Source: Marsupella aquatica
Lineage: Eukaryota; Plantae; Marchantiophyta
Direction of reading: 5' to 3'
Length of the DNA: 64,000 nt
Assembly: GCA_973895155.1 (NCBI GenBank)
Contig: OZ316891.1
Coordinates: 23,145,884-23,209,883, forward strand
Made by a program: the position numbers and the translations under genes. This document shows, one piece after another, positions 11,997 to 64,000 of this stretch (positions are counted from its first letter, which is position 1; each line of letters begins with the position of its first letter). The notes under the pieces were generated by a model, which ran no database searches, had not been told where the DNA came from, and saw only the letters and a list, made by a program, of their open reading frames with translations.

Positions 11997-12432
11997 ATGA
12001 CTCTATAAGTAGTCATTTATGCAATAAGTCCATAATGACTGTATGTTATTGTAAACATTGATATATCATGATTTTTAGATTGACCCTATATTTAGTCATT
12101 TATGCAACAAGTCCATAATGACACTATGTTGTTGTAAACACCGATATATCCTAATTTCAAGTTTGACTCTAGAGTTAGTCATTTATGAGAGAAGTCCATA
12201 ATGATGATATGTTTTTGTAAACACTGATATGTCCTAATTTCAAGATTGACCCTAGAGTTAGTCATTTATGAGAGAAGTCCATAATGACGGTATATTCTTG
12301 TAAACACTGATATGTCCTAATTTCAAAATTGACCCTAGAGTTAGTCATTTATGGGAGAAGTCCATAATGACAATATGTTGTTGTAAACATTGATATATTC
12401 TCATTTTCAGATTGACCCTATATTTTGTCATT
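11997..12432. repeat. 83-bp tandem repeat, about 5 copies (CACTA subterminal region)
   Basis: agtcatttat recurs at 12011, 12094, 12177, 12260 and 12343 (degenerate at 12426). Confidence 0.92.
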
Positions 12433-12805
12433 TAACACCGTTGGTTAAAATGACGGTAATACATTTTTTGTCATTTATCACCATTGTCCAAAATGACCCA
12501 AATAGATTTTTGGTCATTTCAATCATTGTCCAGAGTGACTATAATGTTGTTAAACACTGATTTATCATTGTTGTTATTAATTGCGTCATTTAAGACATGT
12601 GTCTAAATTGACCATTTAGGGAAATTGGGTCATTTTGGTCACATCAGTCATTACATACATTATACAAAATGACGCAAAAGTTAACATTTTGTCATTTCAG
12701 TCCATTGGTCATTGTGGACAGTCATTCCCCTGTCATTCTTTTTGTGTCAATACAAATTTTGGTCATTTATTCATCTCCGTCATTGGGTGATTGGTCATAA
12801 ATGGC

Positions 12806-12822
12806 CCTGTTTTCTTCTAGTG
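12806..12822 (-). repeat. CACTA terminal inverted repeat (right end of element A)
   Basis: cctgttttcttctagtg; the same 17 bp occur at 50392-50408. Confidence 0.85.
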
Positions 12823-31500: not shown

Positions 31501-31859
31501 GCAGGGCAGGCATTTCGCGCTAAGAAACTGCTTCTCCGATGTTTCATGCAGGCCCAGCTTCAGCGCAAGGAAGAAACAGGGTCTGTGCCTACAAAACGCA
31601 TTATCACTCCAGTAATATTTTTGCAAATGCGCAATTAAAATTAAATATGCGCGCTTGAACTGCTCCTTTCCCTACCCTTCCCTTCTCTTCAGGCAATCTA
31701 GTTTCCCGACAATGCAGCATTTGCCTGCGTACAGATAGGGAGTGTTTCCTGTCACGGCTAGACCGTCATATATTCAGGCTAGACCTTCATATATTCAGCC
31801 CGTGTCGGGACCGGTACCTGAAACAGAAGCAATGAAACAGAAGCAATGAAACAGAAGCA

Positions 31860-36400: not shown

Positions 36401-36961
36401 TTTAAGTCAAGTTACCAGCCAACACTGATGAATTCACCATTCGTTCCAGTAGTTTTGTGTTTCAGACATACAGCAAGGCAACGACCTTTTAAACGACAAC
36501 GTGTCCAACTTCAGCTTTTGACTCATTTCCATCCTCTTGTTACATCAACAACTTGGATGCTGATTTTCTCCTGGAAAAATGCATAGCTCTGTCGACCGCG
36601 AGTTCAGGGATTAAGCTAACAATCATATGGCTCCCATGTACGTCACCGTGATGGCTTTTCGAGAAGCGGCTGAGCTTCACAACGTTAATTTCCCTAGGCG
36701 ACATTCATTTGAAGTTTATGGGACAGATTAGGGTTCAGGCCTCAACATAGAAACTGGCCATTGAAGACGACACAAAAGCCAATTACGACCAGTGCCATCG
36801 ATCCGCGATATATAGAAACTTGTAAACTGAAATATGATTGGATGAGAATATTGCACAATCCAAAGAAGTGCTCCTTGAACCCACTCTAACTTCTACACAC
36901 ATAGAATGTAGAACAACGTCTACTGTTAGATTAACAGTTATATAGAGTTGCATATATGTAC

Positions 36962-39900
36962 CTATGCAACTCCCTCCACTGAGACATCTCTGGGCGATTT
37001 CCCAACACATAATTGTGGATCTGTAGGCGAAGTATGTTGTCATGTAGTGAACGCTTTTTTGATGCACCCATCAAACGCAACCCACCATTGTCATCATCTT
37101 GTGCCTCTTCCCAAGCTGTGGGAGCTTCTGTGTCCAAACTCCCTATCATCCCTCCGGAATAAAAGAGGCACTCCGACATGATATACCCCGTTGCCATACT
37201 TCCCTCTGGTCGAGCTGGTTGACGCACCATGGACTTGAGCACTTTCATGAAGCGCTCTACCCAATACATCCAACGTGCATGGACAGGACCAGCAATCGCG
37301 ACCTCATCCACCAAGTGACATAGTAAATGCAATTGCATGTCAAATATGCATGGGGGAAACACCTTCTCCATATTGCACATCACGCGAGCTGACCTCTCTC
37401 TCATCAAAGGAATCTCAGACTCCTTTATCTCCTTAGCGCATACCCACCTATGTTCCTCCTCAAAACCATCAAAGATTTTGTATATCAGATCCACATAGGG
37501 CCATAGAAAAATGAGTTTGAAATACTTGTTGAATTACATGGCTCCTTCAGCGGTAACAAGAACTTGCAAGAGAGCAATGGAAGAGAGGGTACGTTATCAT
37601 ACCTAAAAATGGAGCACATCTCATATATAGTCAGACGGAGTAAACGACGCTCCCGGGAATCATCACAACAACGCAAGACTGCTGGTAGCACATGCTGTAT
37701 CAACTTGTGATAATCATGAGACTTCAACCCTATTGGGGGTATGTGATCATTCCTTGTAGTGCACCCACAAAAACCAGCTCCGTAATGGCTAGGGAACTTC
37801 ATCTCGCTTATCATCCCATTCATGTCCTTCAAAACCTCTCTTGGCAAAATCCAAGGACCAGGAGGTTTCTCCCCAGTACGTGTTATCCAACAACTCTTCA
37901 CTACTCCAACCCTCTCAGCATCCTCTCGGACTCCACGAGTGTCATTCGTCCCATAAATGTGCTTCACCAAGTTCTTAGCAACATTCACTTCAATGTGCAT
38001 GGGGTCCAACAACCATCGAACCTGGAGTCTCTGGAAATTGAAATAACATATTGAATCAATTGCAATCTCTAAATTAAGAATTTTATTGGTCTAATTTGCT
38101 GTAAAGGAACCATGCACTTCTATCACTTACCCTCCAATAAGGCAAGTCCCACATAGCTGAGCGTCGGTTTACTCCACAATCCTTGGGTTTTAGTAACTTT
38201 GCTTCCACCTTCTCTGCCATTTGAATTTGTCCTTCAGCTGAAGGGCCATTAGGACATGGCCGCACTTCAGTCTCTGCCCAATGTGTTGTGTTTTGTCGCA
38301 AGTGGTCATCCATTGCCAACCGGACCCTACTGCCCTCATATGTGGTTTTGTGCAGTAGTCTTGAGTACCTCCCACGCAACTCTGGGCCACATGAAGGGCA
38401 AGCTGAAAAACCTGCCACCTTCAGGCCAGATATTGTCCCCATACCTGCCATTTCATTGAACCATGTTCAGACCACAAATAACCCCAACACTTGCATTGTA
38501 CATGACATTGTGCAAACAATAGTCATTGGGTTGCCCAATGAATTACCTGGACCATCTGTGGTGCAATGAGTGATCATCACCCTCATATTGAAGGTCCTAC
38601 CATTGCCTGCTTCACGAGTGACATCTGTTGTCACTGCTCCAACCTCCCATAGATTATGTAGCTCTTCATAAGCTGGAGCCAAACAGATATCAGGATTCTT
38701 ACAGGCCTTGGGTCCAGGAATTATAGCTAATAGAAGCACATGACCCTTCTTCATTGCCAACCATGGAGGGATGTTTTTATTTATCAAAAGAACAGGCCAG
38801 ATGGACTTAGGCTTCCGTCGTTGTTTATATGGGTTCACTCCATCGATTGCCAACCCCAAACGAACATTTCTTGGCTCCTGGGCAAAATTTGGCCAAGTGG
38901 CATCAATGTGCTTCCACGCTGGACTATCTTGGTGGTATTGCATTATCCCTGGTGGGGATTTGTTCTCCACATGCCAAGTCTGTAGTGTGGATAAGTGCTT
39001 TCGTCGGTAGAGATGCTGAAGTCGGGGAGTGATTGGGAAATAACGAAAAACCTGCCAGATCCAATGTAACATCGTCAATTTGACGACAATCACAATAAAC
39101 GTCCTTCCACACTACGTATTATTAAAACTAACATCGTAAAGGACGACGTTTCATACCCTAATGTACCATGCGACGTTAGTTACTGCATCCCATACGACGT
39201 AAAAACAAAAAAATGTCAGGTGGAAAGACATAAAGTGAGATGGACGACGTAAAGTAATCAATTACATAGTCATGTACGACGTTGTTTGAAAGAATGCAAC
39301 GTTAAAAGTTGGACTTTCTTGTTCTCACATTGCGTTGAGGAAAACATTACCTTTTCTGCAATCTTGTCTCCAATGGTGTCTGGTCGATACCATGGAAGCC
39401 TACAGTGCTCCTCTAGGCAGTGAGTGTGATCCTTGTACACCCCTCTATACAAGATGCACCCACCTGGGCACATGTGGATAGTCTCTAAAGCCAATCCAAT
39501 TGAGGCTAACAACTTCTTAGCCTCCCTCACACATCCAGGGAGAGTGTTTGGTTGGGGCAAGAGTTTGCCGTGGAACAATTGGAAGAGTGCATCTGTATGG
39601 ACATCCGAACCATTGAAAACTCCTTGCAAATTCAACATCAACAAAGTTGCACCCAACCTGGATTTGCAAAACCACAAACACCAGACTTTTTGCAGTTAGT
39701 CCAAGTAGCTAGATGGCATGCCTGGCACTACAATTTAGACTGCCCAATATTCACTGGATGAAATTCCAGAGTTGTGATAATTTTAGGACAACCTTACCGT
39801 GAGGATGGAGATCCCTCAAATAGTGGTGTTCTGGCTTCAGTCTCCAAGTGATCCCAATCTTCTTGATCCACTTCCATGATAGGGTGCTCGGCGTCAGGTG

Positions 39901-42124
39901 CATGAGGTCCAAAGTGAACGTCAACAAGGTGGGCAAATGCATCTTCTTCAAGGACAGGGTCATCTCCCTCATCTCCCTCATCTCCCTCATCGTCAACATC
40001 ATCATCCAACTCTCCATCATCATCCAACTCTCCATCATATGCATCATGGTACTCCTCATCCTCATCGTCCATCTCATCATGGTCAAGGGGCTGACCCTCA
40101 GCATCCTCCTCGTCTGAGAAATGTAAGGTGGCACGTACGTGAAAGGCACGGGCTGATGTAGTCATCATTGATGGGTGAGGTGTGGGAGTAATATGTACAC
40201 CATCCTAGAGTTTTCAATATGCAATGACAAATAACAATTAGAGAAAGGGTTTATGTGATAAAGCTTACAGTGAAACATCAATAATGAAAAATGCAAGGGT
40301 CACCCCATAATGAATATGTCATGTACACATGTAAACATCAATGCCAATCATAATCTACGAGAATCTCTTCCCCTGCTCTAATGGTGCGGGTAGCATGTGT
40401 CAAGATGTAATGCGTGCATGCTACAGGCAAACGAGGGTGACTCTGGTCATGGACTCGGGGGGATCAGTATATGAAGGGTCATACATCACGTGCGACGGTT
40501 TGGGTCATTTATGACCCCCCTAAGTCACTTTCTAGAAAGTTGTACGACACCAATCATGTGATGACACGTATGCATTTTGCAATTAAACAACCCTATATTT
40601 CCATAGAAGACTTAATAAGTCTTCCGCCAAAACCATTTAAATGGCCCTATACTTCGTCGCACATGATATGCCACTTCCATGGAAGTGACCCCCTCGAGGT
40701 CATGGAACTCGTGCCACTCAGCATTTGGCCTAAACCCTGAACGCCGAGAACCAATAGTGCTATTGATGTAACCCGCCAAGTTCCCCGTGCAAGGTGGGTA
40801 ACCATCAATTGAGCATACCTAGGGTCCAACTTTAGTGACATGCCATATCGACTAAAGGTTGGGCACTGTCGGGACAAGATGCGCCATCTTGCCGCCGAAT
40901 ACTTGGGCCCATAGAATGGAAACAACTGAGGCAAATCATCGGGTGCACAACCGGTAGGGACCACGATATCCACAAGAGCAAATACTCCAAGTCCTACATG
41001 AGTCCCCAATGTGGAGGGGAGGATGACCCATGGGCGGTCCCAAACTATAATAGGCTCCCGAAGCGGGAGGTCCATAGGGAGTCCAAACTGGGCTGGGAAG
41101 GAGTCCTTTAAGATGTCCAAGGCTCTCCCTCGCAACTGTCTCGGTGCCCGGGACACGGATGCATCAAGCAAAGGGCATTGGGGCGGAACAATCCTAGGTG
41201 GACGGGACTCAATCGATCGGGGTCTAGTGGTCACCACTACTCCCCTCTCAATAGGGTGCATCCTAAACACTCTCCTCCTCCTCCGAAATACACGGTCTAT
41301 CTCCCTCAATGTGGCTGGCAAATCGGATGGATGGACGAGTGGTGCGAGTGCACGATATGCAATGTCTCTCAAGCGGTCCACAGGCGAAGATCGCACTACA
41401 ACAGGAATCTGTTCCACATGTTCACCAAAACAAGTTCAGAATATGACAATCAAAAAACAATTCAAGGAAGGAGATGTTATCATAATTGCAATACCCAACA
41501 AAATTGTATTACCTCTCGGGTCGGGGGGGTGTAACGACCATGGATCCCTAAATGGCTAAGGACAGTGGTCCTCTCGTGTAAGACAACACCCTTGCATCGT
41601 CTGCAAGGGCAAGGCATCTTGCAAATTGGCCCAATCCCCTGAAGAGCAGCCATGGCCTCTCCAAATCCATCAGCATGATGGGGGCTCCGGCCTCTCCTAC
41701 CGTCGGAACCATGTCTGCATCGACGACGCCTGGATCGGTGACGCCTAGATCGATCATACATGTCTGGTGAGTAATCTCTCTCCCGGTCCGATAGGTCGTC
41801 CCTCCCCCTATGATGATGGTCATCTCTGCGTCGGGTGTAAGTACCCCCACCATGGTCCTCATAGGATGAGTCATCCCTCCTCCTCCCTCCCTCGTCATCC
41901 CTCCTCCTCTGCCGCTCATCATTGCTCCTATAGCCCGATGAAGCTGAACTCCCCTTATGCCGATGATGGTGTCTATGTTGGTGAGAACTACCGCCATGCT
42001 CATTGTCATCGTCACACGAGTCATCCCTTTGCCTATCCGACTCATCATACGTCCCCCTATGATGATGATGGTATCTGTGCCGATGATGCCTGCCCCCATC
42101 ATGGTCCAATGCATAGGTTGCCAT
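36962..42124 (-). CDS. CACTA TnpD transposase no. 1 (transposase-associated domain + Transposase_21 + DUF4218); C-terminal DUF4216 exon not found
   Basis: Predicted exons 42124-41513, 40204-39798, 39657-39351, 39051-38547, 38444-38131, 38030-37603 and 37447-36962, all GT-AG and in frame. Motifs: CPCRRCKG..VLSHLGIHG, RNVRLGLAIDG, CTTDGPG, CPSC, LDPMHIE, LKSHDYH, LHLLCHL, WMYWVER. Confidence 0.85.
40338..41408 (-). pseudogene. SET-domain (protein lysine methyltransferase-like) exon nested in the first intron of TnpD no. 1; one frameshift plus a MITE insertion
   Basis: VILPSTLGTHVGLGVFALVDI..LFPFYGPKY..YGMSL, then a frameshift at about 40812, IDGYPPCTGNLAGYINS..PNAEWHEFHD, the MITE, and QSHPRLPVACTHYILTHATRTIRAGEEILVDYDWH* (stop 40338-40340). 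The GxG, YxG, YIN and EExxxDY SET motifs are all present. Confidence 0.88.
40454..40698. mobile_element. 245-bp non-autonomous TIR element (MITE) with an 8-bp TSD
   Basis: TSD gtcatgga at 40446-40453 and 40699-40706. TIRs ctcggggggatca and tgaccccctcgag. Removing it restores the SET reading frame. Confidence 0.9.
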
Positions 42125-42539: not shown

Positions 42540-44883
<2,344 letters not shown>

Positions 44884-45499: not shown

Positions 45500-48400
45500 G
45501 TGTCAAGTGACAGTGGAAGCAACAACCCTGATCGCAATCTACCTAGAACATATGAACAGGTTATTGATGACCAAGATAGAGCCATGGATGATTTTATGGT
45601 TGATTGGTTTGGTGTTGATGTCCCTGGTGATGACGCTGAGGTGTCTGCTGATCAAGGAGGTCATGTGCCCCCCAATGATCCATGACCAAGACATACCCCC
45701 AAGGGACAGCGCCAATGGGAGGAAGCAGAGGAACATGCCCGAACTCCTATCTATGAGGGTGCTCGTTTGAGTCATCTTTCTGCTATCTTGGGGTTGATGA
45801 ATCTACAGGCCAAACACAAGGCAAGCAATGCCTTGTTATCTGATATGTTTGCACTTTGCCATGACCTTATGTTACCTTCTGGCAATGTGTTGCCAGGAAC
45901 TTGGAAGGAGGCCAAGCGTGTTCTCTCATCAATTGGCATGGAATATCATATCATTCATGCATGTGTGAATGATTGCATGTTATTTCATGGGGCCGATGAG
46001 AAGAAGACATAGTGTACTGAATGTCATGAGCCACGGTATGACCCCAACATGATTACAAAGAAGGTGCCAAGAAAAGCTGTTCGTTGGTTTCCCATCATTC
46101 CTCGGTTGTTGCACATGTACAGGTGTTCTGATTTGGCAGAGTTGATGGTATGGCATAAGACTCATCGATCAGAGCCTGGTGTTATGCGGTTGCCAATTGA
46201 CTCTCCTGCAGTCAAACATATTGAGGAAACATGGCCAGACTTTGCACATGATCCTCGTCATGTGAGGTTGGGATTGGCATCTGATGGGGTTAGTCCTCAT
46301 GCCCTTGGAGGCAAGGGAAGACCTACATCAGTTTGGCCTGTGGTTGTTATGAATTACAACCTTCCACCATGGCTATCCATGAAGAAGGGGTTCCTCTTGC
46401 TGTCTTTGATTATTCCAGGTCCAAAAAAGGTGAAGAACTTTGACACTTATTTGGCACTATTGATTGGAGAACTCCAAAAACTGTGGGGTGGAGTGTGGGC
46501 ATATGATGGCAGGAAAAATACATGAGGCATTCCACGTGTATTTAAATTGAGAGGGGTAGTTTGTTGGACAATGCATGACTATCCTGGTAAGATGACTTTT
46601 TGACCATATGCCACCCTTCTTTGATATGCTCTTTAATATACTTGTTTGTCATGTGACAACCCTAACATTTAGTCTGGTTTTATTTTTGGTGTAACCAGGG
46701 TTTGGCTTTGTCTCTGGATTGCAAACTCAGGGGTACAAAGCTTGCTCCACCTGTGGTCCACAATTGCAAGATATGGCAATTTGGTCCCCATGGCTTAGGA
46801 AGATTGTTTACATTGGGCATACAAAGTTTCTTCCGATGGGGCATGAGATGAGGTCTGACCCACTTTTATTTTCCTCCTTTGACATGCCCCTTGGTGATAT
46901 GCGGGAAATTCCGGAACCAACAACTTTTGGGCATTGGAAGTCACTAGCTGATAGGGTGGCAGACCCTGATGATCCCCTCACCTTTGATGGTACTGGGTTG
47001 ACGAGGTGGAGTATACTAGCCAGTTTGCCCTATTGGTCAGAGTTGAAGATCCGCCATCTTTTAGACCCCATGCACATAGAGGGAAATGTGGGGAAGGCGT
47101 TGATAGCTCATTTTTTATGGGGAGAAGGACACTAACTTCAGGGAGGCATGTGAAGAGTTGGAAATGCATCCAGATGTATGGGTACAAGTTGATCCTGCCA
47201 CAGGTTTGGAACATCGTCCTTCTACTCCTTGGGTGCTTAGTGTTGGCCAAAGACGTGAATTCCGGAATCGTATAGGGGAGATGCGGTTTCCTACAGGCTA
47301 TGGTGCCAATTTGAGGAAAGCTTTTGGGATGGAGGACAATCACAAATGGCCACGGTATCTCAAGACACATGACTATCACCGCTTATTGCAGCATATATTG
47401 CCAGTGGCAATTATAGGGTTGGGGACCAAAGAAGTGCAAGATGCCATTTGGTCATTGGGTCGTTTGTTGAGATGGATATGCTCAAAGGAGATATATGTGG
47501 AAGAGATTCCTAGAATGGAGGTATTGGCTGCTGAGGTGGTTTGCAAGTTGGAGAAGGCCCTCCCTCCTTCCTTCTTTGATTGTCAGGTTCATTTACTTGT
47601 GCATCTTGTGAGGGAGGTTGCCATTGCTGGTCCAGTTCATTGTCGATGGATGTACTGGCTTGAGCGTTACATGTCAGTCTTGAAGGCTTATGTACGTAAT
47701 CGTGCACGAGTGGAGGGAAGCATAGCTACAGGATACTTGGCTGCAGAGAGCATGTTTTATTGTAGTAACATCTTGGCCACCATTGATCGGACTTTACCAC
47801 GTACTTGGATGGAGGAGAGGCAAGAGGAGGAGGACCGTTTAACAGGAGCAACAAAAACATGCATGCTTACATCAACAGAGTGGACACAGTTGAATACATT
47901 CATGTTGAGTAATAGCAATGTCATGGATGAATGGAGGGAGTTTTATGACAATGCCAAAAGAATGAGTCAAAGGGCAAGGATTTTTCCTAAGTTGCATGAG
48001 TTTATGAAGGAAAAGTTGGTTGAGTTGGATTGCATTTTGGCACAAGGAGGAGATGTCTCACAGTTTCCTACTATGACAAATGACATTCGGACCATTGTTC
48101 ATGGCCCTTTGAGAGTGGTAACATCCAAGACGGCCATGTGGACCCAAGGGAGACACTTCAGGTTTCACTAGTTCCTAACCTTGTTTTCCATATTGATGTA
48201 CTACTACTTAAGATATAGTAATCATTTTACTTAAGATAAGTGTGTTTTTCTCTTTTGGTATGAAAGGTTCCTCATAACATGATTAGTGTTTTTTGTGTAG
48301 TAGTAACAATATATGGGTCTTGTTAATTTCAGGATTTCTTCCCTTGATGAGAAGAGGCTCGTACTTTTGATTGTGGAGTTCAAGGGCAGTTTTGTCAGGA

Positions 48401-49898: not shown

Positions 49899-50408
49899 TT
49901 GCGAACTGTTTGCGAAACTAAACAAATCCCAACCAAATCGCAATTCTGCCATTTAAACCGTTTCTCAATTATTCCATACTATACGCTTCACTATTTTGCG
50001 ATATCCAGACCATCCCACCTTTACCATCCATATCGTTTCGCACATTTGCCATACAAACCCATCGCAAATTGTTTGAAGCTAACCTTTTCGCAAACATCCT
50101 CCAATACTAATTGTTTTGCATCATTAATGTTACCGTGGTTTCAGACTTTCGGAGCGGTCATGGAGCCTTCGTAATGTGTTTTGTAATCTCTGTAGTTTCG
50201 CAAACTATTGTGATACAATAAAGTTCGCAAAATGTTTGCGATGCAAATCACATGGAAGACCAAAGTTGCGATACCACAAGTATCGCAAATTGCGATGCGT
50301 ATTGAGTCATCAACGGTTTGAAGCATCTGGAATCGCAAACGTGTGTCCGGACTCAAATGAGCTTCGCAAAAGGGCAAAATATGTTGTAGTGCCTGTTTTC
50401 TTCTAGTG
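49899..50408. repeat. CACTA subterminal repeats (TCGCAAA/TTTGCGA, about 14 copies in both orientations) and terminal inverted repeat
   Basis: Motif copies between 49899 and 50370; terminus at 50392-50408. Confidence 0.85.
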
Positions 50409-52180
50409 CCACATGATAGTTTGAATCCACTCCGAATAGAGTTTTGTGAAAAAAATGGAGGCTTTACACCGTGCCAGGAAATAGGAGATTTTTTTACTGA
50501 TACGAGCAAAAACTTTCCTCATATCAGGAGAGTTTTCCTGTTATCAGCAATGTTTTTACTCACATCAGGAAAAACATTCAAGGAATTGTCATCCTCCGTA
50601 CTGTTGTGAGCAACACCAATTAAAAAACATTCAAAAAATTCCATGAAAAGTGGAGTGCCAAGTCTCTCGAACCACTTGAAAATGTTCAAAACCAATTAAA
50701 AACAAAATGGGGCACCTCCCTAACCTCAAAAGGAAGATTTTGAGGAAAATATGTAAATAATACTAGTGCCAGGCGCTATCAATGACTCAACCCTATTTTA
50801 CGAAACCAAACATTGTCTAATACATTCATTCTCAATAAGCTTCTGTATATGATAATGCTGTTGGAAAACGACAAAGTACTGACCATTGGAACGTTAACTA
50901 CATAATAGACACCTCTTTAAATACTACCCTAAACTTTGTCGTTCCAACAAGAGACGTATTTCTCCAACGGTGAGTATAGGCTGACTCGACAACGTTGATT
51001 CTCGAAGGTCCAGTTTGAAAACATTCTTATAAATCCAATACAGATGTTTGCAAGGCAGGAAGGGTTTGCAGTGGGCATGACGACGATAGAAATCTTTGCA
51101 AGAACAGCACGGGAAGCAGCAAATCTGAACCCAATAGGCAATGATAGAGTGGTGACCAATGTGTGTTTGGATGCAAAATTGTTTGCCCCATCCATTTCCT
51201 GTCGCAACATCCCTTGAACAGATTATTTTCATTTCTTCTTTATCAGCTGCCTCAATCTTCTTATAGTGCGATTTAGTTAGATGCACTCTCTGTAGGCACG
51301 TCCTCCCGTTTCGAGATAAACAGCGAATTGTCGACTGAAGCAGATTGATCCTTTCCGGGAAAACATTGACATCGATTTGAAGATCTAGTCCACTTGGTGC
51401 ATTTCTTACACGATCACCTTCACCTCCGATCGATATTCCGTTGCCCTTCAGAAACTCTACCTCCGCAGTAGAAAGATTTGTAGTCAATGCAATGGGCAAG
51501 TGATCACAAGGTGGTGGAACATTCACCACACCTTTTCGAGGACGACTTTTGTAAAAAACATTATTCGGACAGAACCAGATCAGTTCTGGATGTGGTTCCC
51601 CTCTGAAAATTTGCGCTGCTCGAACTGCGATACCAACGACTCCGTTTGACGTCCGGTAGCCTACTTTCTTCAATCGATTTCTACATTCGTCACGATCTCC
51701 ATGTCCGCCAAGGGATCCATTGCAGACTGGGCCAGCACCATGCTTCGAAGTTCTCCTAATATGCCATGCTCCAGAAGGAACATTGGACTCCAACACGGAT
51801 GGGGTTACTTCTTCAATAACATGGACTGGGGTCGTGACTGGAGTTGCAGATGACCTCGTCTCCATCGGAGGAGGAGGTGTCCGCTCTTCAAGACTAGCTG
51901 AGGCATCGCTCTCTGAACTATTGACGACTACACTCTCTTGGGGACCTGGTTCAGAAGGAATCGCAGAGAATTCCGTTCTATTGAGATTTCTTCTCTTCAA
52001 ACCTCGGGTGTTTGGGGTCGTAATGAGGATAGTGTCATGCCTGTGGGAGTCTTGCGCAGAGACATTTCCAGTAGCATGTCCCTTCCTCTTTATTGACCGG
52101 GTCTGTACATCCCCGCTCAGGGGTCTCACTATATGGGGACCTCCCCATCACCTGCGACGTTTTTAGGCCTCGGACCCCAT

Positions 52181-52411
52181 AAAATGCAAGAAAAAATTAT
52201 TATTTTTTAACCCCTATAAAGTTGGAATATTCTTGGAATATTCCAAAAATTGGATTAAAACGGCCCTAATGTTCTTATAAGTCTCAAAATTGAATTTAAA
52301 GACCCTATTGTTCTTCTACAAAAATTCTTAAGTCTTCCCTTACAACCAATAAAATGACCCTATCCTTCGTCGCACGTGATATGCCATTTTTGTGGAAGTG
52401 AAACCCCCGAG
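52181..52411. mobile_element. MITE fragment related to the 40454-40698 element
   Basis: About 120 bp of similarity: aatgaccctatccttcgtcgcacgtgatatgcca..ggaagtgaaacccccgag versus aatggccctatacttcgtcgcacatgatatgcca..ggaagtgaccccctcgag. The left TIR and TSD are not evident. Confidence 0.7.
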
Positions 52412-52778
52412 CATCCCCGTTCAAAGGGGAATTCCTTTCCAAATCGAATTCAGCCGCATTGGAAAGGAAAAGGTTTGAAGCTTCTTCAAACAACCTTGGG
52501 GAACCCGCTAGATCTGCAGAGCGAAAAGCCAGCTCAAACACAGTTGGGCCATTCCCTCTGTTCAATCCTCTCTTGTAAGCCGTATAGGCTGCAATTTGAG
52601 AGATCGCTCTATTCTGGTCGGTTTCACACCCTTCAAAGACTCCAACCTTCTTCTTCAATTGCCAGGCAATCATTGACGCGTGAGACGACTCAGATCCACC
52701 ACAATTTGGAATCATTGCCGCTTCCTCTGCACTCTTGCTCTGCAGAATTCACCGACAAGGTTAGATTTAGGACTTGAA

Positions 52779-52931
52779 TAGCGCCAGGCGCTAGCCAATG
52801 AACATATAGAAATAATAGCAGATATGATCAATTTGAACCTGTATGAGTAGCGCCAGGCGCTAGCCAATGAACACATAGAAACAATAGCATATGTAATCAC
52901 TTTGAACATGTATGAGTAGCGCCAGGCTCTG
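52779..52931. repeat. 69-bp intronic tandem repeat, each unit carrying the 15-bp palindrome
   Basis: tagcgccagg starts at 52779, 52848 and 52917, inside intron 52740-52956. Confidence 0.92.
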
Positions 52932-55109
52932 ACCAACGATTGTTTTGAATACTTACCAATCAAATAAAGTTTCCCCATTGGCGCCATCGGACAACCCACC
53001 ATGAAATCCAACCTTGCAACATTCGTAATTTACCAGGATAACAATTCCCTGCCCTCCACCATGAATCATTTCTCTAGAAATACGATATGCCTTGATAAAT
53101 GACTTTGCATTCCGCAACCTATCCCATAGGGCACGATGTTCACTCTGCTTTCCCTCAGGAATGCCTTCAATTGAGTGTCTCCGAAATGACTGAAAGAAGT
53201 GAAATGCATCTGATCGCTCACGTTCGGGATGAGGAAGTCCCCCAAAGAACACATTCCTCACAGCATTCCAACCAGCTTGAGCATTGTCCGCCATAAAACC
53301 ATGAATGTGGACATCGTGAAGACCGTTCTCATCAGCCACCTCCAACATTAAACGCCAAGACCTCTCAAGGGATTTTGTATCTTCTGCTTGCAACTCGCAA
53401 GTGAATATCGTGCAAAGTGCACGATAGTTATGGTCATAAACATGTACACTAAATGTAAGCCAATCCTTTGTCATTTGGTGCATCACATCAAAACTTACCC
53501 ACGAACCCTCAAGAGGCCCTCCGGGACTCATCTTTCAAAGAAGGTCCAGACCATAGCCTTCACCCTTAGTGGACATCTTGAAAATATGTGCACTCTCATC
53601 TCTAGACCCTTGTCCCGGCAACAAGAACCTTTGCAGAAATGGGAATGAAATGTTCTTCTGCATGCTTACCAGAAATTCCAATTCACCTCTGCCTTTCTGG
53701 TCTTGACGGATACTCCTCAGAAGGTTCACAAATTTCTGAGGCGTTGAGATGACTTGAAGAGATTCAAAAATCTTGGTCTCTTCTATTGGGATCATGTCTT
53801 GAACTGACGACTCACACATTGCCTTAAAAAGAGACGAGGTGACGGTGTTCTTCATACCCACCGCAGTTGCACGCGGATTCAAAGTCAAACCTTGTTCCAT
53901 GTGCATCTTTGCAACTTTTTCTGCCTCTCTTGAAAAAACTTGCTTGCTCGGATGGTTATGATGTCCGATGTGAATGGCAAGCCGCGACATATGCTTAGCA
54001 GACTCGGCATCAACTTTGGAAGATGCGTACATGTAGAACATCATCGCTGGACAGAGCTCAACACAAAATGGGCGCTCCCAACAATAATGACAGACAATCC
54101 CACCCTCAGGAATGAGTTGCCCGACTACGTGTGGTCCAGAAATCTTAGGAACTCTTTCCCAGAACTTTGCATTCCTCCTTTTATGTTCTGCACAGAACTG
54201 ACATGAATTGTTACGACATTCCAGAGAACCCGTGCAAAAGACTTTTCCAAAATCCCACACCTTTTTTGGGAGAACATTTGCGGAAGTCGTAACAATCCGA
54301 GTCCAATAGTAGCAGTCCTTGCCGCGATCCATGTCCCGGAGGCGTTCACCTTTTGAGCAAACTCCAACAACTGGAGGCAGTTTGAAAACAATATTCCCAT
54401 TGTACGTGCCAGGCAAGCTTGATACTTGCTCAAATCGGTAATCATTCCTTTGCATGAATCTTGAGATCTCACTCTGGGCTTTTGATTGAAGAATCGTATC
54501 AAGAGCACTCCTTCGGTACACAACTGAATTGGTCGTCCGCCCATGGACCGTCTCCACTTTGACGTTGTTTTGAGGAAGATGAAACTTTGCCAAATCTTCA
54601 TCATCGCTACTATCTGAAAGGTCAATCAAATTGACTTTCAGCTTCCCCTTTGAGGAGGATGGCACCTCAAATTTTCCCAAACTAACAATGTCATACTTCA
54701 CCCCACCGCACAACCTCCAATACCAAACTCCTCCAATGAAATAAACATCAACCACCACTTCCTCTCTCGAGATAACTATTCGTTGTATGCTTTCCCTGGG
54801 AATTCCAAACCTGGTGGCAAGATATTCCTCAGAAACTTCATCATTTTTCTTAGGAGCGGCGAGCAGGATTGCCACGAGGTCACCAGGCGGACAGCGAGAA
54901 ATTACAATTCGCGAGTCCATTGGAAATGGCGTACAGAAATGTAAGGCCACCTAAATTCATTTGTGCTGAATAAAACCGTTACGAATATGACAAAGTGACC
55001 TATTAGCAATGAATGCTTGTCGTATTCTAACGGAATTACACATGTCAGCACCTACCAAGAAAATCTTATTGATCAAAATTTGAACATAAATTTCAAGGCA
55101 CACAAATAA

Positions 55110-55637
55110 TAGCGCCTGGCGCTAAGTAAGGGAGATGAAAACTTGAGGCTCCATATGCACATATTGATGGATGGTTTGCCAAGAATCATCTCAGATGACA
55201 AGATTGTATCGAGTACACCTTTGATAGCGCCAGGCGCTAGCAAATATGTATCATGCATATCTGGTCCGTAACGATAACTCCCAAAGCTAGATTACGTGCG
55301 CTATCAAAGTTGTACTCTATAATCAAACGGTAACTTTAAAGGGTAATCAGGTTAATGTTTATTAGCGCCCGACGCTAGTAAAGTATTCGAAAAGAAATGT
55401 TATGTTCTTGAAGGAATATTATCTTCCGTGTTATATATGAGAGGATAAAGAGACAAGAACGACATCTCCCTATGATAGCGCCAGGCGCTAACAAAACTTA
55501 GAGTGAAGTTTTGAAGGGTCTAGACTGCCAATTTTTACTAGCGCCTGGCGCTAGTAAAAACTTATATGCTAAATATGATGTTCATGTTAGATTCAAGGAA
55601 CCTTCACAACGGACAACAATGATAGCGTCGGGCGCTA
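55110..55637. promoter_or_regulatory. Cluster of six TAGCGCCWGGCGCTA-type palindromes between the divergent transposase and ParB-MTase genes
   Basis: Copies at 55110, 55225, 55363, 55476, 55539 and 55623. A regulatory or binding role is inferred. Confidence 0.6.
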
Positions 55638-56047
55638 TCTAATAACGACTCGCTATTCAATGGTAACTTCAACGGACATTTTAGTCGATTCGAGTATAAT
55701 ATTTATGGAAGTAGCAGGTCCACGATAACTTAAACGGATACCTCTTTACGAACTATGAGGTCTACTGGTCAGTCCCAGATTTAATCAACGGTGCATTTCG
55801 CTCCAGGTGTCCAACGTCCCCCGACTCACATGCCGCCAGAAGTCCAGTCATCGTACATTTAGGGTACTTTGCTTCCTTTGGAATTGTTCCTGCTGAGGCA
55901 GATTCTTCTCATTTGCGTTGGTGTCATTGAGGGATGCGTGTAAGGAGAATCCGCACGATTAAGCGTACGAACTCCCAAACAAAATCCCGTATGAAACAAA
56001 ATTGAACGGCAAAAATCTCCGCATCGCAGTTGAGAGAGTATATCAAA

Positions 56048-59000
56048 ATGGGGTGTGGGTCGCCAAACCATTCCCAGTCCTCAGAGTCATCGTATTCCAG
56101 TTGTGTTTCAAGTCGAAGAGTAACTCGTTCCATAGCGCAGTATCCTCTCAGTCAAGTTGAGCTTCCCTGTCCAAAACCGAGGCTATTGAAAATGGAACAT
56201 GTTGGTGAGTTTGCCGTTCAGAATGTCGATGACATTGAGAAATTGGTGGTCGATGTCATTGAAAAGCACGTGATGTCATTTGGAGTTGATGCGAATGGGT
56301 TACCAAAGGAGCCTCCAAGAATTCCTTTATGTTGTCTCGTTCACATGGAGGTTGTGCGCACTCTTCAGAGGAACAGTCAATCGATTGAGAAGCTGAAGGA
56401 CTCGTTCCGGACATCTGGATACAATTCGTCCATTGGCATGCGCTTTTTTGTTCAACCATCCAACGCTGAAGGTAATCCTCAGATTTGTACAGATGAAATT
56501 CGCGGTACTTGGGATCCTCTTTGGATCATGGAGAACGACTTGTTCGAAGCGGAATGTGAATCAGACCCCGCTTTCCACGTCCTCAAGGACAAAATGTTCT
56601 ATGTTTTTGATGGAAATCATCGGTTGTTTTCGTGGACTCAAGTCACAAACGAGAGTCCAGAGAATCCTAAGTATCATCCTCGCGTGCAATGCACAATTTT
56701 CAAAGGAGAGAAGGCATCAATCATCGAGATTGAGGCAGCGATGCATATTGTTAACCAGTGAGTTTTCTTTCACCACCGACTAGTCTTCTCAAATTTTATT
56801 GTTTCCCTTCGACAATTTCTCTCTTTTTCAGATTGTATTGTTAGGTTAGCGCCAGGCGCTATTTCTAATGTCCTCAATTGCACAGGACGGGACAGGCAGT
56901 GGTAGAGTCTTCTTGGATTTTGGATGCGGACAGAATTAGGAGGATTTTGGCTCATGATCTGGAGTACTACAAACCCATAATTGATGAGGCAAATTATGCA
57001 AAATTCGAGAAGACCAGGAAAGAAACCCGAAAGGGTTCTTGGTTTACCAAGAAGATGCCGATGGAGGCGTTGGTATACATCTTGTGTGAAAACAAGATCA
57101 AATTGTACTCGCAGCAATTTCAGGTGATGAAGAACCAGGCGAGCAGTTCCGACGCTCCATGGTCGGTCGAAGAGACAAATCTTTGTCACAGTCAGATGAT
57201 GAAGGAAGCCACTAAGGAGTGGATTGTGAAAACTCCAAAGCTCACTTCCTTGCTGAGCCCAGAGTTTGAAGATTTCATGGACACTTGTGCTGAGATGTAT
57301 TGTCTTACAGATCGACTCAAACGTGAAAAGGTACCTGAAGCTGTATTCTGCACCATGGATAGAGCTCGCTTGTTCACTGCCAATTTGGCATTAGATCCAA
57401 AATTGCAAAGTACATTGCTTGTTGCACATTGTACTCCCGAGTTAAGGAAACAGTTTTTCCATCCGCTCGGAGTATCGGACGACCCCGTGAAGTAGTGGTG
57501 CCACACCTGGCATGTTTGGAACACAATTGAGGGGATGGCAACTGCTCTCCTCGAGGCATGTTTGAAGGAGGCTATGGGTTCATGCACCGAACAACGTCTT
57601 ACAACACTCGGTGGAGAACTGATTCCCTTTGAGAAGTTGAAGGCTTTGATTGTAGATGATTTTAGAAAGTATGGGGATTCCGTAAGGGCCAAGTTTTTCA
57701 ACACTATTTGGGAGTCCAAGTACGCTGACAAGGAGGATTTGAGTGAAGTTAACCGCAAGAGAGCCAAGAGATATTTGTATCGATACTATGTGAAAATGGA
57801 GAGGAGTGACCCGGGCTATTTCTGGGCTTATCCTGGTGCCTTCCAGAAATGGGCCGTTGTGAATATGAGGTCCGAAGTGTCTGGAGACTTTCTTGGGTAC
57901 ACCATGTACCCACCGGAGGGAAAATTTCCCCCAAGGAAAATGGCAAAGTGGGAGGTTGTGCATTGTCTGTGGTATCTTGACACAGACAAGTGGAATTCAC
58001 CGTTTGATGAGATAGAGAAAGATGCTTTTCACAAGTTATCAAAGAATTTGGAGCCCAGAAACATTTTGTCAAAGATGAAGCAGGGAATTGATGCCAAGAT
58101 TGATCTCTCGGCGATAGAGCTCCAACGGATTTGTGAGACGCAAGTCGTCCAAGTTGCAAGGAGTCGAAAACCAAGAGCAAAACCCAAGCAAGAAACAACC
58201 CCAAGTGGATCTAAAAAAGAGACCAAAAAAGTGAGTTCCTAATTTGGTAGCTTCAAATCTTCGTAATTTTCAGTCTTCTATATTGCTAGCGCCAGGAGCT
58301 GTTATTAATATAACAATTTCTCTAGCAGGATCTCGGAAATCAGATGCGGGGTTGGTGTCGGGTAATGCTTTGACTGCAACTCCGGAGCCTTCTCGTGACA
58401 ACAGTCTTGGGAAGGATGAGGATCGACCAGAGGGGTCGGAGACCCCGAAAGATGTGAGTGCTCCGCCAGTGGATGCCACCAGCACTAGGAAGAAGAAGAA
58501 ACGTCACGTTTCTACTTCCGGTGGGTCTCATAGGGAAACGCTTGCGGCGACTGGTTTACAGAGGAATGTGGGGGACTTCAAGGGAAATAAAACCAGGCAC
58601 ACATTCGTGGAGTCTACCTTGGCAGAGTTCTACGATAGTGTGTTTCAAAAGGAAGAGAAGCCATCTTGGGTTTCTCAGGTAGAAACCTGGGGAAAGAATC
58701 TTGTGAAGTCGGGTTCTCGATCAAAGGGGGTTATTAGAGGTGGAAAAGTTAGGACATTTGGTGTGGATGCAGGATTTCTGTATTTGCCTACCGGATTGAG
58801 CCATCACTTTTGGACAAGAAAGTCCCGAAATGGAATGTGCAAGACCACTCTCTCCCTGGGGCTTTCTTTAGCGCAATGGACCCTTTCCTATCGGACGACG
58901 GAGTTCTGGCTATTCTTCACACTGGAGAATATGACCAGATTTTGGAAGTGATATCTGCATGCTAGCAGTCGCAAAAGTTTGACTGTATTGCATCGTATAC

Positions 59001-59765
59001 AGTTGTCATGGGGTTTCCTATGTACAAACCTAAGTCTGACACTCAAGTAATTAATGTCATTCATTTTGGCCAGCGCCAGGCGCTAATCTTGTATCTCTTT
59101 AATTTTGGCCAGCGCCAGGCGCTAATCTGTGTCTTTTTGTTTCATGGTCTTACTATTCTATTGTTTTGTAGATCTTCACGCTGCGGTTGGATATATTCTG
59201 TCGGGGTTTGCGAAAATCAACAATACCGAAAGATCCCAAGTTCCATCCATTGTTGCCTTCCGAAGATCCTTCAATTACAAATCTGATCGGATTTCCGTCT
59301 TTAAAGTTGGATCCAATACCAGAACTTGTGGCTTGTGGAAACGGGAGGCTCACAGTTGGTTTTATGCAGTCTGTTATAGAGATCATCTCTTGTCTAGGGG
59401 ATATTGTGATCGACTGGACCTGTTGCTCAAGAAGTTCATTCGTGGCGGGAGACTATTGTGGTAGATTTGTTGTTGGGGTGGAAGGGCGAACAGAGTTTGT
59501 CACGGCTTCAACGTTTACCTTAGCTGACCTTTTGGAGCCAAAGTCAGCTTTGACTCCAGAGAAGAGATTGTCAAGGAAAGGGAAAGAGAAGTTGGACAGA
59601 GTACGATCAATTTTGAACTTTGATTCCGAAGAGAGCGAGCCGGATGTTGCTGGGGAATCTGATGAAGAAGAGATTCCAGTTGTCAATCTAGGAGACGATG
59701 AGGCAGAGAAAAGAAATCCCTCGAGATCAAAAAGTGATTCCGAGGATGAGGAGTCTTCTGAGTAA
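56048..59765 (+). pseudogene. ParB/Srx-like N-terminal domain fused to a degenerate beta-class N4/N6 DNA-methyltransferase-like domain; 4 exons
   Basis: Exons 56048-56758, 56886-58230, about 58329-59046, and 59172-59765. ParB-like: IPLCCL..VVRTL..SIEKLKDSF..GY..MFYVFDGNHRLFSW. MTase-like: VDAGFLYLPTG (motif IV position), FLSDDGVLAIL, and FMQSVIEIISCLGDIVIDWTCCSRSSFVAGDYCGRFVVGVE (motifs X-I-II). Stops at 57493 and 58963; frameshift at about 58800. Confidence 0.72.
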
Positions 59766-59839
59766 TGCTCGTAAGCTCACTCCAAATGTACGACTGTTTT
59801 TAGCAACATATTTTTGGTAAACTTAGTGTTTGTTTTAAT

Positions 59840-60151
59840 ATGGATGAAACTTTCAGGTCAGAGTGGAATACGCGGAGAAGGTTTGAACTCCGGAAAACGA
59901 TCGCTGAAGCTATGGAGGTTACACCAGAAAAACCATTTATTCTCCCATCCTATGCTGAGAAAGCCGCCCAAAAAGTAGAGAGGGCTCAGACATTATCTTG
60001 GGAAACAAAAGGTCTGAGACTTAGAAGAGGTTCTGATAGGAAGTTTTTGGTGAACAAATTCGTGGATGACATGTGCCGGAGTGAGTTTGTGAACGACGAG
60101 GCGGAGTCGACCAATAGATCCGATAGTAGTGAGACAGAGTCATCTGAGTAG
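59840..60151 (+). CDS. Small hypothetical ORF (103 aa) or additional exon of the MULE cargo
   Basis: Open ATG-to-TAG frame with protein-like composition, 75 bp after the ParB-MTase stop. Its acidic ending (ESSE*) mirrors that gene's ending. Confidence 0.35.
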   Translation: MDETFRSEWNTRRRFELRKTIAEAMEVTPEKPFILPSYAEKAAQKVERAQTLSWETKGLRLRRGSDRKFLVNKFVDDMCRSEFVNDEAESTNRSDSSETESSE

Positions 60152-61769
60152 ATCAGTTATGAGAACCCCATTTGTATCAATTCCATCGTATATAAATGTT
60201 CAGACGTGAACAAATATTTGTAGTCAAGTTGGTATATTATGTTCTCAAGTGAGCTTGGAGAAATATGAAAGTTCAATATTTCACTTTAGCGCCTAGCTTC
60301 ATGCCAGAGACTATTGCAAAAATTGAATTCAGAATATTTTTGGGACATGCTCTGGGTGACTCGTATTTGTATAGCGCCTGGAGTTAACCAAATAACCCTA
60401 AACTTTCAGAATTTTCAAGGAACGAAAAAGATTTGGAAATGACTTTGTTTTTGATAGCGCCAGGCGTTAGCCAATAATATGCCTTCCGGAAGTAGTATTA
60501 CCGTTGAAGTTTTGTCGGTTAAGTTCATAAATTAATGAACGTTAGCACCCGTTGGGGAAATATTCCCCGTCGGTCCATTCTCATGAGTTGGTTTGGTCGT
60601 ATGTCCGTTGAATCAAAAAAACGGAGATACTTTGAGGGGGCATACATTCGAGTAATCCCTCCATACGAAGCTGTTCACATTGTGCTCTTGCGGTTTGGAA
60701 AGTATACTCTGCGCTTGAAGGTTGTTTCTTGCGCTACATGCGTTGAGTAACCCGATCAAAGTAACCATCGATGGACGATATGGAGCGTCCTGGTTTCAAT
60801 GTCGATAACGTTGTGCGGCCCCAAAGGAAAGTGCCAGCATCGGAGGAGTAGACCGATCAGACGGTCAACTTTGGGTCATCGACATTGATTGCAGACACCG
60901 AAAGTCGCCTGACCGAGACTTCCGACATAAGGAATCGTCTCCAACTGCCTGCGGACGAGGGTATGAGCCCGGGTGAACGGAACATTCCTTGGCTTCCTGA
61001 TTCTCCTCCGAGGCCATTTCAGTAGAGATTCTCAATTCATTATCCAACTCCCGAACATCCTCCATCGAATGTCTTCTGGGATGTGGAAATTCAGTCTGCT
61101 GAATTTCTTGGTCGTATCAATTTCTATGATACAAACCTTCCTGAGTCTTCATCGCACCCTTTGCGAAGGCTTCCAAGTGCACGGTACGTTGCAACTCGAA
61201 CATTTGGCTTTTGACAGAAGCCAAAACACAAGAAGGCAGGGCTCATCGACGAATGTGAGTCTTCGTTTGATCCGGGATCATCCTAGGATCATCGTGGTCA
61301 TGATCTTGGGTAGCGCCAGGCGCTACTCATTTCATGGAGGAGAACCACATCCGGTTCGTAGTTTGGAATTGGAGGAGGTGAACTTGCTGCTTCATTTTGG
61401 GGTTAGGTTAGGCTTGTGAATGGGTTTTTTCACCGTGGATTGCTCCGTTAGAGTGAGGTTGATTATAGTTTGCAGGGCTCAACGACGGATTTGGGTCTTT
61501 CTATGATCCGGCATTTTGAATAGACTTGTGGTTAGGCTCTTGGGCCTCCCGGAGATACTTGTTTCGCTGATGCGATCTATGATCCGGTGAATAATTTTGA
61601 ATTGCTGGAGGTGGACTTTAGGCTCCTCATTTTGGAATTTTGTATTGTGCTTCATTAGTAGAAGCGACGTGTATACACAATGTTTTCAATTTAGTAAAAA
61701 TCATTTTGGCTTGAGTTTTGTTAACTGGTATGATTACGTTTTTTCATTTTGAGTAGCGCCTTGCCGAGG

Positions 61770-64000
61770 GCAGAGATCGGCAAGGCTCAGGTCTACCTGG
61801 CAGAAAGGCCAGACCCAAGCAGGGATTACAACGGGTACCTCCTCAACCAACTGAAGAAGATCTTGAAGGAGGAACAGTAGGTGATCTGCGTGGGAAGCGT
61901 GTCCCGGCTTGGCTATCACATGCCGCTGTTGTGCCGGTATGCCAAAAGTCAAATCTTTGCCCCAGTACTTCCCCTATTGGCAAGGGCACCGGAGGAGGTT
62001 CCAGAGCAGGGGCCGGCACCAGAGAAGCCCAACCAGCCCGACAGTCCGATGATTGAGTAGGTGTTTCGGACAAGGAAAGAAGACTTGCCGATGCAGCAAC
62101 CAGGCATGCAAAATCTGCTGAAATTGCTGAAGGAAAAGAGAACGGTTCCAGCAACGGCAACAGTTCCGGCAATGGCAACGGCAACGGCACCGATACAAGA
62201 CGCTCCCCCAAAGGTCGGCCTAAGCTGACTCAGAAGGGAAGACCCCTTTATCGGAGCCAAGGAGAGAAGGAGGCCAGAACACAAGCCGGGAGTGTGAATG
62301 TATGTGGGAGCCTCAAGCCCCGAATCAGAGGCAGAGCAGCCTAAGGCTCCTTCCCGCGCAGAGCAGAGGGAGACGACAGCCTGGAAACCAGAGGAACCAG
62401 AGGCCATTTTCACGACTGGACCAGGGGAACAAAGGGAGAAGCCGGGAGTCCAAGTAGTGGAGGAGGCGGTGGAGGACTACAACAATGATAACTCTAGCTA
62501 TGGGTCGGATCATCATGTTCCAGGAGTAAGGACCTGTGGCCGATTTATCCCCACGCTTCCAAGAGTAGTTTGAGGGGACCCCACCCAATAGAGTAGCCCC
62601 GAGTCTCCCCCACCAGAGATTGCTCCCCCGAGCTTTGACGGCATAAAGCAGACGGCACAAGAATTTCAGGAGCGACTTAGGGAGGAAGAGAAAGCAGCCC
62701 TGGCTAGGGAGAAGGATTTACCAGGAGGAGATTGGCCGGAGGACATCAAGCGGCTTGCCAAAAAAAGAAGCAACCCTCTTGCCACCATAGAAGAAATCCG
62801 CAAGGCGGCTTGGGAGCAAAGGCCGCGGTGGTTGATGCCGATGACTTCTAGTTACTCCACCTATGCTAAGGGTAGAGCCATGGAGTACGGGGAGATGTGT
62901 GGGGACCTGGCGCTCAGCATCTTTGGGGAGGAGTTGGAGCAGGGACCCTTTTTCCAGAGGGAGATGTTGGAAAAGCACCGATTAGAAGAAGCGGTGGCTT
63001 TGGAGAGAAGCAAGAAGGACAAGGTCATCCGGCGGCTTAGGGAGAAGGAAGCCAAGGTGGAAGTCCTGTAGGTGGCCAAGAAAGCCCAAGATGAGCTACG
63101 GATTAAGCGGCATGAGCTAAACATCATGCAGGGGCAGTTGGATACCGCTCAGTCTGACAATCAGATTATCAAAGATAAACTGACTCGGACCCAAGGAGAG
63201 TTGGCCGGCGCAGTCAAAGAAAGAGAGAAATGGAAGCGGGAGCGAAGGGATGCAGAGGAGGCCCACTTAGCAACCAACAATTGGGCAATGGTAGAGAACC
63301 AGAGAAGGGAGAGGGCGTTGAAAGGAGAGCTCAAAGATATCCGTGGAGCCCTTGAGCAGAAGGAAGCAGAGTTAGGGAAATCCTATCAAGGGATTATTGC
63401 GCTGTAGCAGGAGCTTGCATCCCTAACGGCCAGCTTCAAGGCTCACCTGCATGAAAAGGACAACCAGCTCGACCAAACTTATGCCAAGATGAATAAGATG
63501 GAGTCTGTGGTCGTAGCAGAGCTCGACAAGGAGCTAAGAGCAACCCAGGAGGAGAGGGCTACCTTAAAGAAAGAATTGGAGGAAGCCAACAAGGAGCTGG
63601 AGGAGGCGTGCAAGGACCTGGACGAGACCCAGGAGGAGTTGGAGGAAATCACAAGGAAGATGGAGAACCTATAGCGGCGGGCCGACAACCAAACAGAGCG
63701 GCTGAAGACACAAGCCGCAGTATTTAAATGCTTGGCTTCATCAGGTCCAACTCCAATTGGGGGAACCCAGTTACCAAGGGTAGTATTGGCCGCAGGACAA
63801 GCCGAAACACTCACCCCGGTGCCGAAGGTAAGTGGCAAAGGGAAGGAACCGGCTGTCGAAATAGGGAAGAAGAAGAAGCAGAAACCTTCTAGGTCTGGGA
63901 GTTATACGGCTTCTCAAGCCGTTGTGACCGAGAAGATAAACCCGACACCAATCTTTGGCATCGGCACGGCGATGGATCCACCAGTCCTAGGAAGTGGAGA
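61770..64000 (+). pseudogene. Decayed long coiled-coil ORF, probably a retrotransposon-associated accessory ORF fragment
   Basis: Abrupt shift to purine-rich, E/K/R-rich coding-like sequence. Heptad-like segments (ELDKELRATQEERATLKKELEEANKELEE) are broken by TAG stops at about 63069, 63405 and 63672. No RT or integrase motif is visible. Confidence 0.45.

Follow-up and report, generated by a model that had tools for sequence, protein, structure and literature searches.

A divergent two-gene element with palindromic sites

We examined a stretch of 64,000 bp from Marsupella aquatica (assembly GCA_973895155.1, contig OZ316891.1, positions 23,145,884 to 23,209,883; this whole stretch is "the window" below and is numbered from its first letter), in which a transposon carries a 15-bp palindrome in many copies together with an accessory (cargo) gene for a protein with a predicted ParB/Srx-fold domain and a methyltransferase-like end. 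Two genes lie back to back across a 1.1-kb gap, a transposase-like gene on the minus strand and the cargo gene, with four exons at 56048-59765, on the plus strand. The features of the element and its limits were as follows.

50392..50408 (plus): right end of the neighbouring CACTA element; left limit of the palindrome element
50924..52739 (minus): transposase exon 2, with SESSH as the likely catalytic E and, at the C-terminus, a CxC..CxH motif that is SWIM-like by eye; interrupted by the nested insertion
52116..52411 (no strand): nested, very high-copy 296-bp element resembling a miniature inverted-repeat transposable element (MITE); its inverted ends are imperfect and 15 bp long, and it is flanked by a target duplication of 8 bp (52108-52115 / 52412-52419)
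52740..52956 (minus): transposase intron, GT..AG, with a 69-bp tandem holding three sites; splice sites inferred from sequence and homology
52957..54920 (minus): transposase exon 1, with an N-terminal Cys/His zinc-finger region (WRKY/GCM-like by eye) and the putative catalytic D (FDVMH), D (ADNAQAG) and DxxH (SDAFH)
54921..56047 (no strand): divergent gap with six sites, from the gene model; other copies add a site near 55287-55302
56048..56757 (plus): cargo exon 1, domain of predicted ParB/Srx fold in which VR, DGNHR (56609-56623) and a terminal Asn are conserved, from model, structural search and alignment
56758..56885 (plus): cargo intron 1, with site 56847; intron position common to four of four related loci
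56886..58230 (plus): cargo exon 2, a helical region of ~450 aa with 22-28% identity to liverwort relatives; broken by a stop (57493) and by the loss of 1 nt near 58224
58231..58328 (plus): cargo intron 2, with site 58287, from the gene model
58329..59046 (plus): cargo exon 3, low-complexity linker, then the methyltransferase-like domain (first half, with FLYLPTG as motif IV); broken by a frameshift near 58799 and by a stop at 58963
59047..59171 (plus): cargo intron 3, with sites 59071 and 59110 (39-bp duplication), from the gene model
59172..59765 (plus): cargo exon 4, rest of the methyltransferase-like domain (with DWTCCSR as motif I) and acidic tail, from alignment with relatives
59840..60151 (plus): intact open reading frame (ORF) of 103 aa with an LPxYAE segment, which is also found behind the methyltransferase domain in liverwort gene models (best E 1.7e-5 among the proteins compared)
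61760..64000 (plus): fragment of an unrelated very high-copy element, seen from a depth jump and loose ends at 61760; truncates the palindrome element on the right
TAGCGCC(A/T)GGCGCTA, 17 sites (no strand), from a mismatch search: starts at 50764, 52779, 52848, 52917, 55110, 55225, 55363, 55476, 55539, 55623, 56847, 58287, 59071, 59110, 60372, 60455, 61311

A search of the window allowing up to 3 mismatches found 17 matches to TAGCGCCWGGCGCTA (eight perfect, four with one mismatch and five with two), all within 50764-61325 and none elsewhere in the 64 kb; shuffled controls gave a mean of 0.38 and a maximum of 3, and none of 100 reached 17. Half-sites were present at 60287 and 61754, the first 50 kb held two lone TAGCGCC half-sites (7611 and 44054), and the palindrome was the sole strongly repeated palindromic word of the element. 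The coordinates given for the sites in the initial annotation of this DNA were all correct, as was its remark that the palindrome is not found in the first 50 kb; its perfect and one-mismatch classes also stood, but the five sites to which it gave two to three mismatches have two each.

All 17 palindromes lay outside the exons of a gene model drawn from sequence and homology, as the initial annotation had claimed: one past the transposase stop, three in the transposase intron, six in the divergent gap, one, one and two in the successive cargo introns, and three downstream; none of the four modelled introns lacked one. Given a non-coding share of 0.38, this placement has a P of 7e-8, or of 3e-6 if 13 sites are taken as independent. 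The 69-bp tandem accounts for three sites and the 39-bp duplication for two, and gap sites 55363 and 55539 have 57 nt in common at 72%; the flanks of the remaining palindromes were unrelated to each other, as had been noted for most of them. No steady helical phase was found in the spacings between palindromes. The set is real, non-random and well organised. Every palindrome contains two CpG and a central CCWGG and can thus be targeted by CG and by CHG methylation, and binding of a protein to it might be methylation-sensitive. Among viral contigs the 15-mer was found in 52 loci, as a single copy in 51 of them (up to 2 mismatches) and twice in one, with no clusters of palindromes in these loci. 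The junction with the high-copy element on the right (61754-61760) follows directly upon a TAGCGCC half-site, as though a palindrome had been cut near its centre, which may be chance.

In four of four sequencing runs (two studies) contigs were found across the full set of 30 bins, many of them variants with 80-99% identity, and the element is therefore a multi-copy, repeated family; the tie that had been drawn between the palindromes and a repeated element was upheld for the element as a whole. The window copy is dead, because the transposase gene has three breaks and the nested 296-bp insertion and the cargo gene four breaks. At four of these breaks the sequence is different in other copies, from which the insertion is also missing.

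Variation among the other copies was followed over region 55060-55700, which holds six sites, with variant positions taken from 40 of 67 rows. None of the 39 listed variant positions fell within the six sites where 5.5 were expected (P about 0.003), and the 10-nt margins of the sites varied normally (6 listed variants, 7.3 expected); this avoidance weakly supports selection on the sites. We also compared four short metagenome loci (L001-L004) that carry the ParB exon. In L002 (40% identical) a different palindrome, ATCTCGGC-N7-GCCGAGAT, occurs twice in the same intron 1, which was reached by none of 200 shuffles, and in L003 (53% identical to L002) the intron holds a decayed copy of the L002 palindrome with 5 mismatches in 16. 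L002 is one clear case, and lends weak support to the view that a divergent ParB may be paired with a different site; the check that had been proposed, on whether related families carry different palindromes, thus found weak support in L002 and the decayed copy in L003, and no GC-rich palindrome in L004. Lone half-sites of the window palindrome lie upstream of the related ParB exons at L001:123-136 and L003:35-42, at about chance level.

The accessory protein and the transposase

An AlphaFold2 (AF2) model of the cargo exon 1 domain, made from 96 sequences, had a predicted local distance difference test score (pLDDT) of 93. The top 12 of 16 matches in the VIA structural search were to the ParB/Srx superfamily, the best being KorB (Z 7.0, root-mean-square deviation 3.0, 95 residues aligned), with a lead over the next matches of less than 1 Z unit, which is a tie; Foldseek likewise placed ParB/KorB/Noc first (E 0.02-0.2, probability 1.0). 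Over the 96 rows the GNHR residues were conserved in 86 (G), 92 (N), 87 (H) and 80 (R), the second Arg in 80, and the terminal Asn was invariant in 15 of 15 close relatives. With sequence-based searches Pfam returned only DUF1015 for exon 1 (E 0.18), and the PDB sequence search was blank for ParB. Despite the modest scores, the unanimous superfamily ranking and the conserved GNHR support a ParB/Srx fold for this predicted domain; DGNHR was confirmed at 56609-56623, and the ParB/Srx type that the initial annotation had given to the domain was sustained by AF2, VIA and Foldseek together.

HMMER over all representatives gave 226 relatives of exon 1 at E 0.001 or better. Those named by species came from the liverwort Riccia sorocarpa and two Adiantum ferns (20 proteins looked up, of which two were transposases). 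A word-based search found no ParB relatives of greater length, and a pattern search, which is insensitive, found none in viral contigs or prokaryote genomes. In a FastTree of 35 ParB domains the deeper nodes were weakly supported.

The cargo end was read from its relatives. The 1207-aa Riccia protein P0159 is colinear with cargo exons 1, 2 and 4 and matches PF01555 (N6_N4_Mtase) at E 5e-5; PF01555 matches by relatives ran from E 9e-6 to 5e-5, just below the gathering score, and PRK13699 matched 19 of 26 rows, window exon 4 included. The window exon 3 and exon 4 pieces aligned in order with 22 Riccia domains, with motif IV ahead of motif I, and the best PDB matches of a profile of the Riccia methyltransferase domain were beta-class methylases (E 0.04-0.3). 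By these sequence comparisons the cargo end is homologous to the beta-class N4/N6 methyltransferase domain; the methyltransferase part proposed earlier is therefore borne out as a homologous domain, with both of its motifs altered in the window copy.

In the transposase, D, D and DxxH were common to four of four homologues reaching these motifs (six homologues in all, at 38-58% identity), the likely catalytic E lies just past the intron, and the frame of exon 2 is open once the nested insertion is skipped. Three lesions break exon 1: stops at 53535-53537 and near 52960, and a frameshift near 53067, where other copies differ. No MULE (Mutator-like element) or SWIM match was found in Pfam, and the PDB sequence search was blank. 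The layout of zinc finger (WRKY-GCM1), catalytic core and SWIM is that of MULE transposases (PMC1702500). From the visible motifs and their spacing the transposase is likely Mutator-like; motifs and layout speak for the earlier Mutator assignment, which found no profile match.

Precedents and possible roles of the sites

The supposition that such a system had not been described proved wrong, since two papers of 2025 describe one in brown and red algae. In Ectocarpus the element Sola1-1_Ec32 carries, opposite its transposase, a gene for a 1104-aa ParB-like and N4/N6 DNA methyltransferase protein, for which the authors propose self-binding and self-modification (PMC12477816). It resembles the window element in having a ParB-like and amino-methyltransferase gene of ~1100 aa on the strand opposite the transposase, a likeness of architecture, and differs in its host (a brown alga), its Sola1 transposase, its length of 21.5 kb and its 282-bp terminal inverted repeat (TIR); palindromic sites are not mentioned in the text of it that was found (PMC12477816), whereas the window element has 17. 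In the red alga Bostrychia, PAG3/PAG2 of Plavaka (EnSpm) transposons set a ParB-like gene beside inverted-repeat arrays, with a parS analogy and self-modification proposed, and the PAG cassette is found in Mutator and Zisupton elements as well (10.1101/2025.02.11.637652). PAG3 fuses ParB to a 2-oxoglutarate (2OG) oxygenase and has its methylase as a separate gene, whereas the window cargo fuses ParB to the methyltransferase-like domain; the PAG repeats are tandem arrays next to the gene, and the window sites are single and spread across all introns and the gap. Judged by architecture against what is available on Sola1-1_Ec32 and PAG3, the window element likewise has a ParB-like domain and a domain of DNA-modifying type in a DNA transposon near inverted repeats. 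The architecture and the hypothesis are thus already published for brown and red algae, and the occurrence in a land plant, with a defined site, is the new part; in the literature searched (without the Bostrychia supplements) there was no land-plant report or biochemical test, and these two papers were the only direct precedents.

Other systems are alike in part. VANDAL21/VANC21 of Arabidopsis is also Mutator-type, with an accessory gene and a family-specific motif accumulated in introns and upstream, partly by tandem repeats; its motifs differ in being 9-bp, non-palindromic and co-oriented, and VANC is not described as a ParB or a methyltransferase in the text available (PMC5735166). Binding and demethylation are proven for VANC21 (PMC5735166), and are conjectural for the window element. 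Bacterial ParB/parS, Noc and KorB (7bm8, 6sdk, 7bnr, 8qa8) share the N-terminal ParB/Srx fold, a GxxR-type motif and a ~15-16-bp palindrome in many copies; the window cargo differs from them in having no ParA partner, a helical region longer by 110 residues in place of a clear helix-turn-helix (HTH), and a fused methyltransferase domain. Beta-class amino-methyltransferases (CcrM, DpnA-like) have motif IV before motif I as here, with weak profile matches. Marchantia DN4MT1 has TSPPY and is active, compared with D-x-P-x-G in the window family and YLPTG in the window copy, and "ParB" does not occur in the main text of that paper in the form available (10.1101/2021.02.12.428880). The ParB-HTH methyltransferases of chlorophytes are a different fusion (Iyer et al. 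2016, PMC4738411).

The reading that we favour, though at a little under an even chance, is that the accessory protein, with its ParB fold and methyltransferase-like end, binds the palindromes of its own element, marks the element as self and keeps its expression on. In its favour are the non-coding placement of every site with at least one per intron, the repetition of the element, the avoidance of sites by variants, the predicted ParB fold with its conserved GNHR, the full-length liverwort relative P0159 with its PF01555 match, and the L002 palindrome; the layout of the palindromes also parallels that of the VANDAL/VANC motifs in introns and tandem repeats (PMC5735166). The parts of this reading differ in strength. 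The palindromes are very probably protein-binding sites under selection, and the accessory protein, acting as a dimer, would be a reasonably good candidate for the binder. The effect may be to keep host cytosine methylation off the element, either by occupancy or through an amino-methyl mark, which we hold only tentatively. Bacterial ParB loads and spreads using cytidine triphosphate (CTP); by analogy, and with slightly less confidence, a nucleotide-binding ParB domain could load here and perhaps spread. Unlikely, yet worth stating, is a broader form in which land-plant elements (in liverworts, ferns and kin) would use a CTP-loaded ParB clamp, with a family-specific parS-like palindrome in every intron, whose spreading blocks silencing. 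If true, land plants would have an anti-silencing code built on a clamp, with protein and site diverging together; this could explain the element-wide effect of a short motif, and a working clamp with swappable sites could serve targeting in plant epigenome work. With a ParB-fold protein and a known 15-bp site, the hypothesis put forward for algae can be put to a direct test in land plants, among them a liverwort genus in which relatives are annotated. The worth of the element as a test case lies in this defined site and in the evidence for site differences between families.

Several results weigh against the favoured reading. The variant test covers the 40 rows (of 67) named above; where depth is raised at the sites, variants can be thinned to under the 20% cut, which biases the result towards conservation. 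A seventh site near 55287-55302 in other copies has been lost in the window copy, so that sites turn over. In L004 (30% identical) neither three introns nor 478 bp of upstream DNA held a GC-rich palindrome, and none was seen in L001 (48% identical), of which the 424 + 60 bp covered are too little to tell. All structural Z-scores were below 8. A Riccia stand-in model of the ParB and helical regions showed no recognisable ParB-type HTH behind the ParB domain; with this model the Foldseek alignments spanned whole ParB/Noc chains, at E 0.15 or worse, and VIA matched the N-domain, and the helical region only to generic helices or bundles. In place of DPPY/SPPY, motif IV reads YLPTG in the window and D-x-[P/S]-x-G in relatives, and motif I has changed as well; intact (D/N/S)PP(Y/F) with FxGxG was found neither in the window (FLYLPTG, DWTCCSR) nor in liverwort relatives (YLD[L/M][P/S][S/T]G, DFAGGWG). 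With these changes to the catalytic motif and motif I methyltransferase activity is doubtful, and the domain may be a non-catalytic binder. The observed/expected CpG ratio was 0.76 in the element compared with 0.18-0.38 in most CACTA-neighbour bins, but this was equalled by the 14-34 kb bins, and CpG depletion discriminates none of the mechanistic readings.

The accessory protein could instead bind the sites as an autoregulator of the divergent promoters, or as a transposition helper that compacts the element for synapsis, and not as an anti-silencer. Plasmid KorB represses promoters at a distance, and KorB was the best structural match, albeit in the tie described above; six of the 17 sites are crowded into the 1.1-kb divergent gap, the other eleven lying in introns and downstream, far from promoters. 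The altered methyltransferase motifs would suit such a role, whereas simple repression needs no methyltransferase fold kept across liverworts and ferns. A helper has a parallel in maize MuDR, where MURB binds MURA (PMC12973397). On balance we think this role unlikely.

Lower still do we rate binding of the sites by the zinc-finger domain of the transposase, with the ParB-methyltransferase gene a passenger or acting elsewhere. The N-terminal Cys/His region does resemble the WRKY-GCM1 finger of MULE transposases (PMC1702500), in Arabidopsis the transposase of AtMu1 by itself binds its own family and causes hypomethylation there (10.64898/2026.08.24.746577), and the L002 palindrome is known without its partner transposase. 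AtMu1, however, binds terminal repeats, whereas the palindromes lie in the interior of the window element and are most closely packed in and around the accessory gene; furthermore, the published ParB accessory genes switch transposase superfamilies and adjoin inverted-repeat arrays (10.1101/2025.02.11.637652).

An origin as host signals that the element acquired, either for transcription factors or at the RNA level (short intronic hairpins), would fit a site in every modelled intron and the capacity of a single strand to form a 6-bp stem with a 3-nt loop; it appears very improbable, with six sites in the intergenic gap, a palindrome of unrelated sequence, its arms 7 nt apart, at this intron position in L002, and no match in the rest of a window rich in other transposons. 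Least probable of all is that local duplication and gene conversion left the sites behind without any function, in a family whose copies gain and lose them, for although five sites lie in two tandem duplications and the window copy is dead, most flanks are unrelated, exons are avoided (P 3e-6 or lower), variants avoid the sites, and eight sites are perfect despite two CpG and a CCWGG in each.

Remainder of the element and of the window

No TIR partner was found for the left 350 bp of the element, nor a target duplication, and the right end is replaced by the other element. The nested insertion is marked by a contig joint (52107-52412) with a depth jump, to a depth tens of times or more above its flanks, and a second piece of the MITE-like element lies at 40581-40698 (76% identical). 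The 103-aa ORF may be a third gene or a further cargo exon. No ORF for a cognate ParA ATPase was found among those scanned in the element, which is truncated at 61760. On the minus strand at 60540-61280 there are broken frames, covered by contigs at ~80% identity with one to five gaps over 60963-61279; no Pfam match was found for these frames, which suggest a further decayed gene.

Elsewhere in the window are three CACTA transposase genes (Transposase_21, DUF4218) at 579-3764, 36934-39111 and 46013-48168, the first and third in strongly CpG-depleted DNA, with identical CACTA right ends at 12822 and 50408. Several ORFs of 170-306 aa at 30387-35070 and 42540-43789 had no Pfam match and showed little CpG depletion. 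At 12010-12434 there is a tandem array of an 83-bp unit (5.1 copies), and at 44451-44654 a (GA)102 microsatellite.

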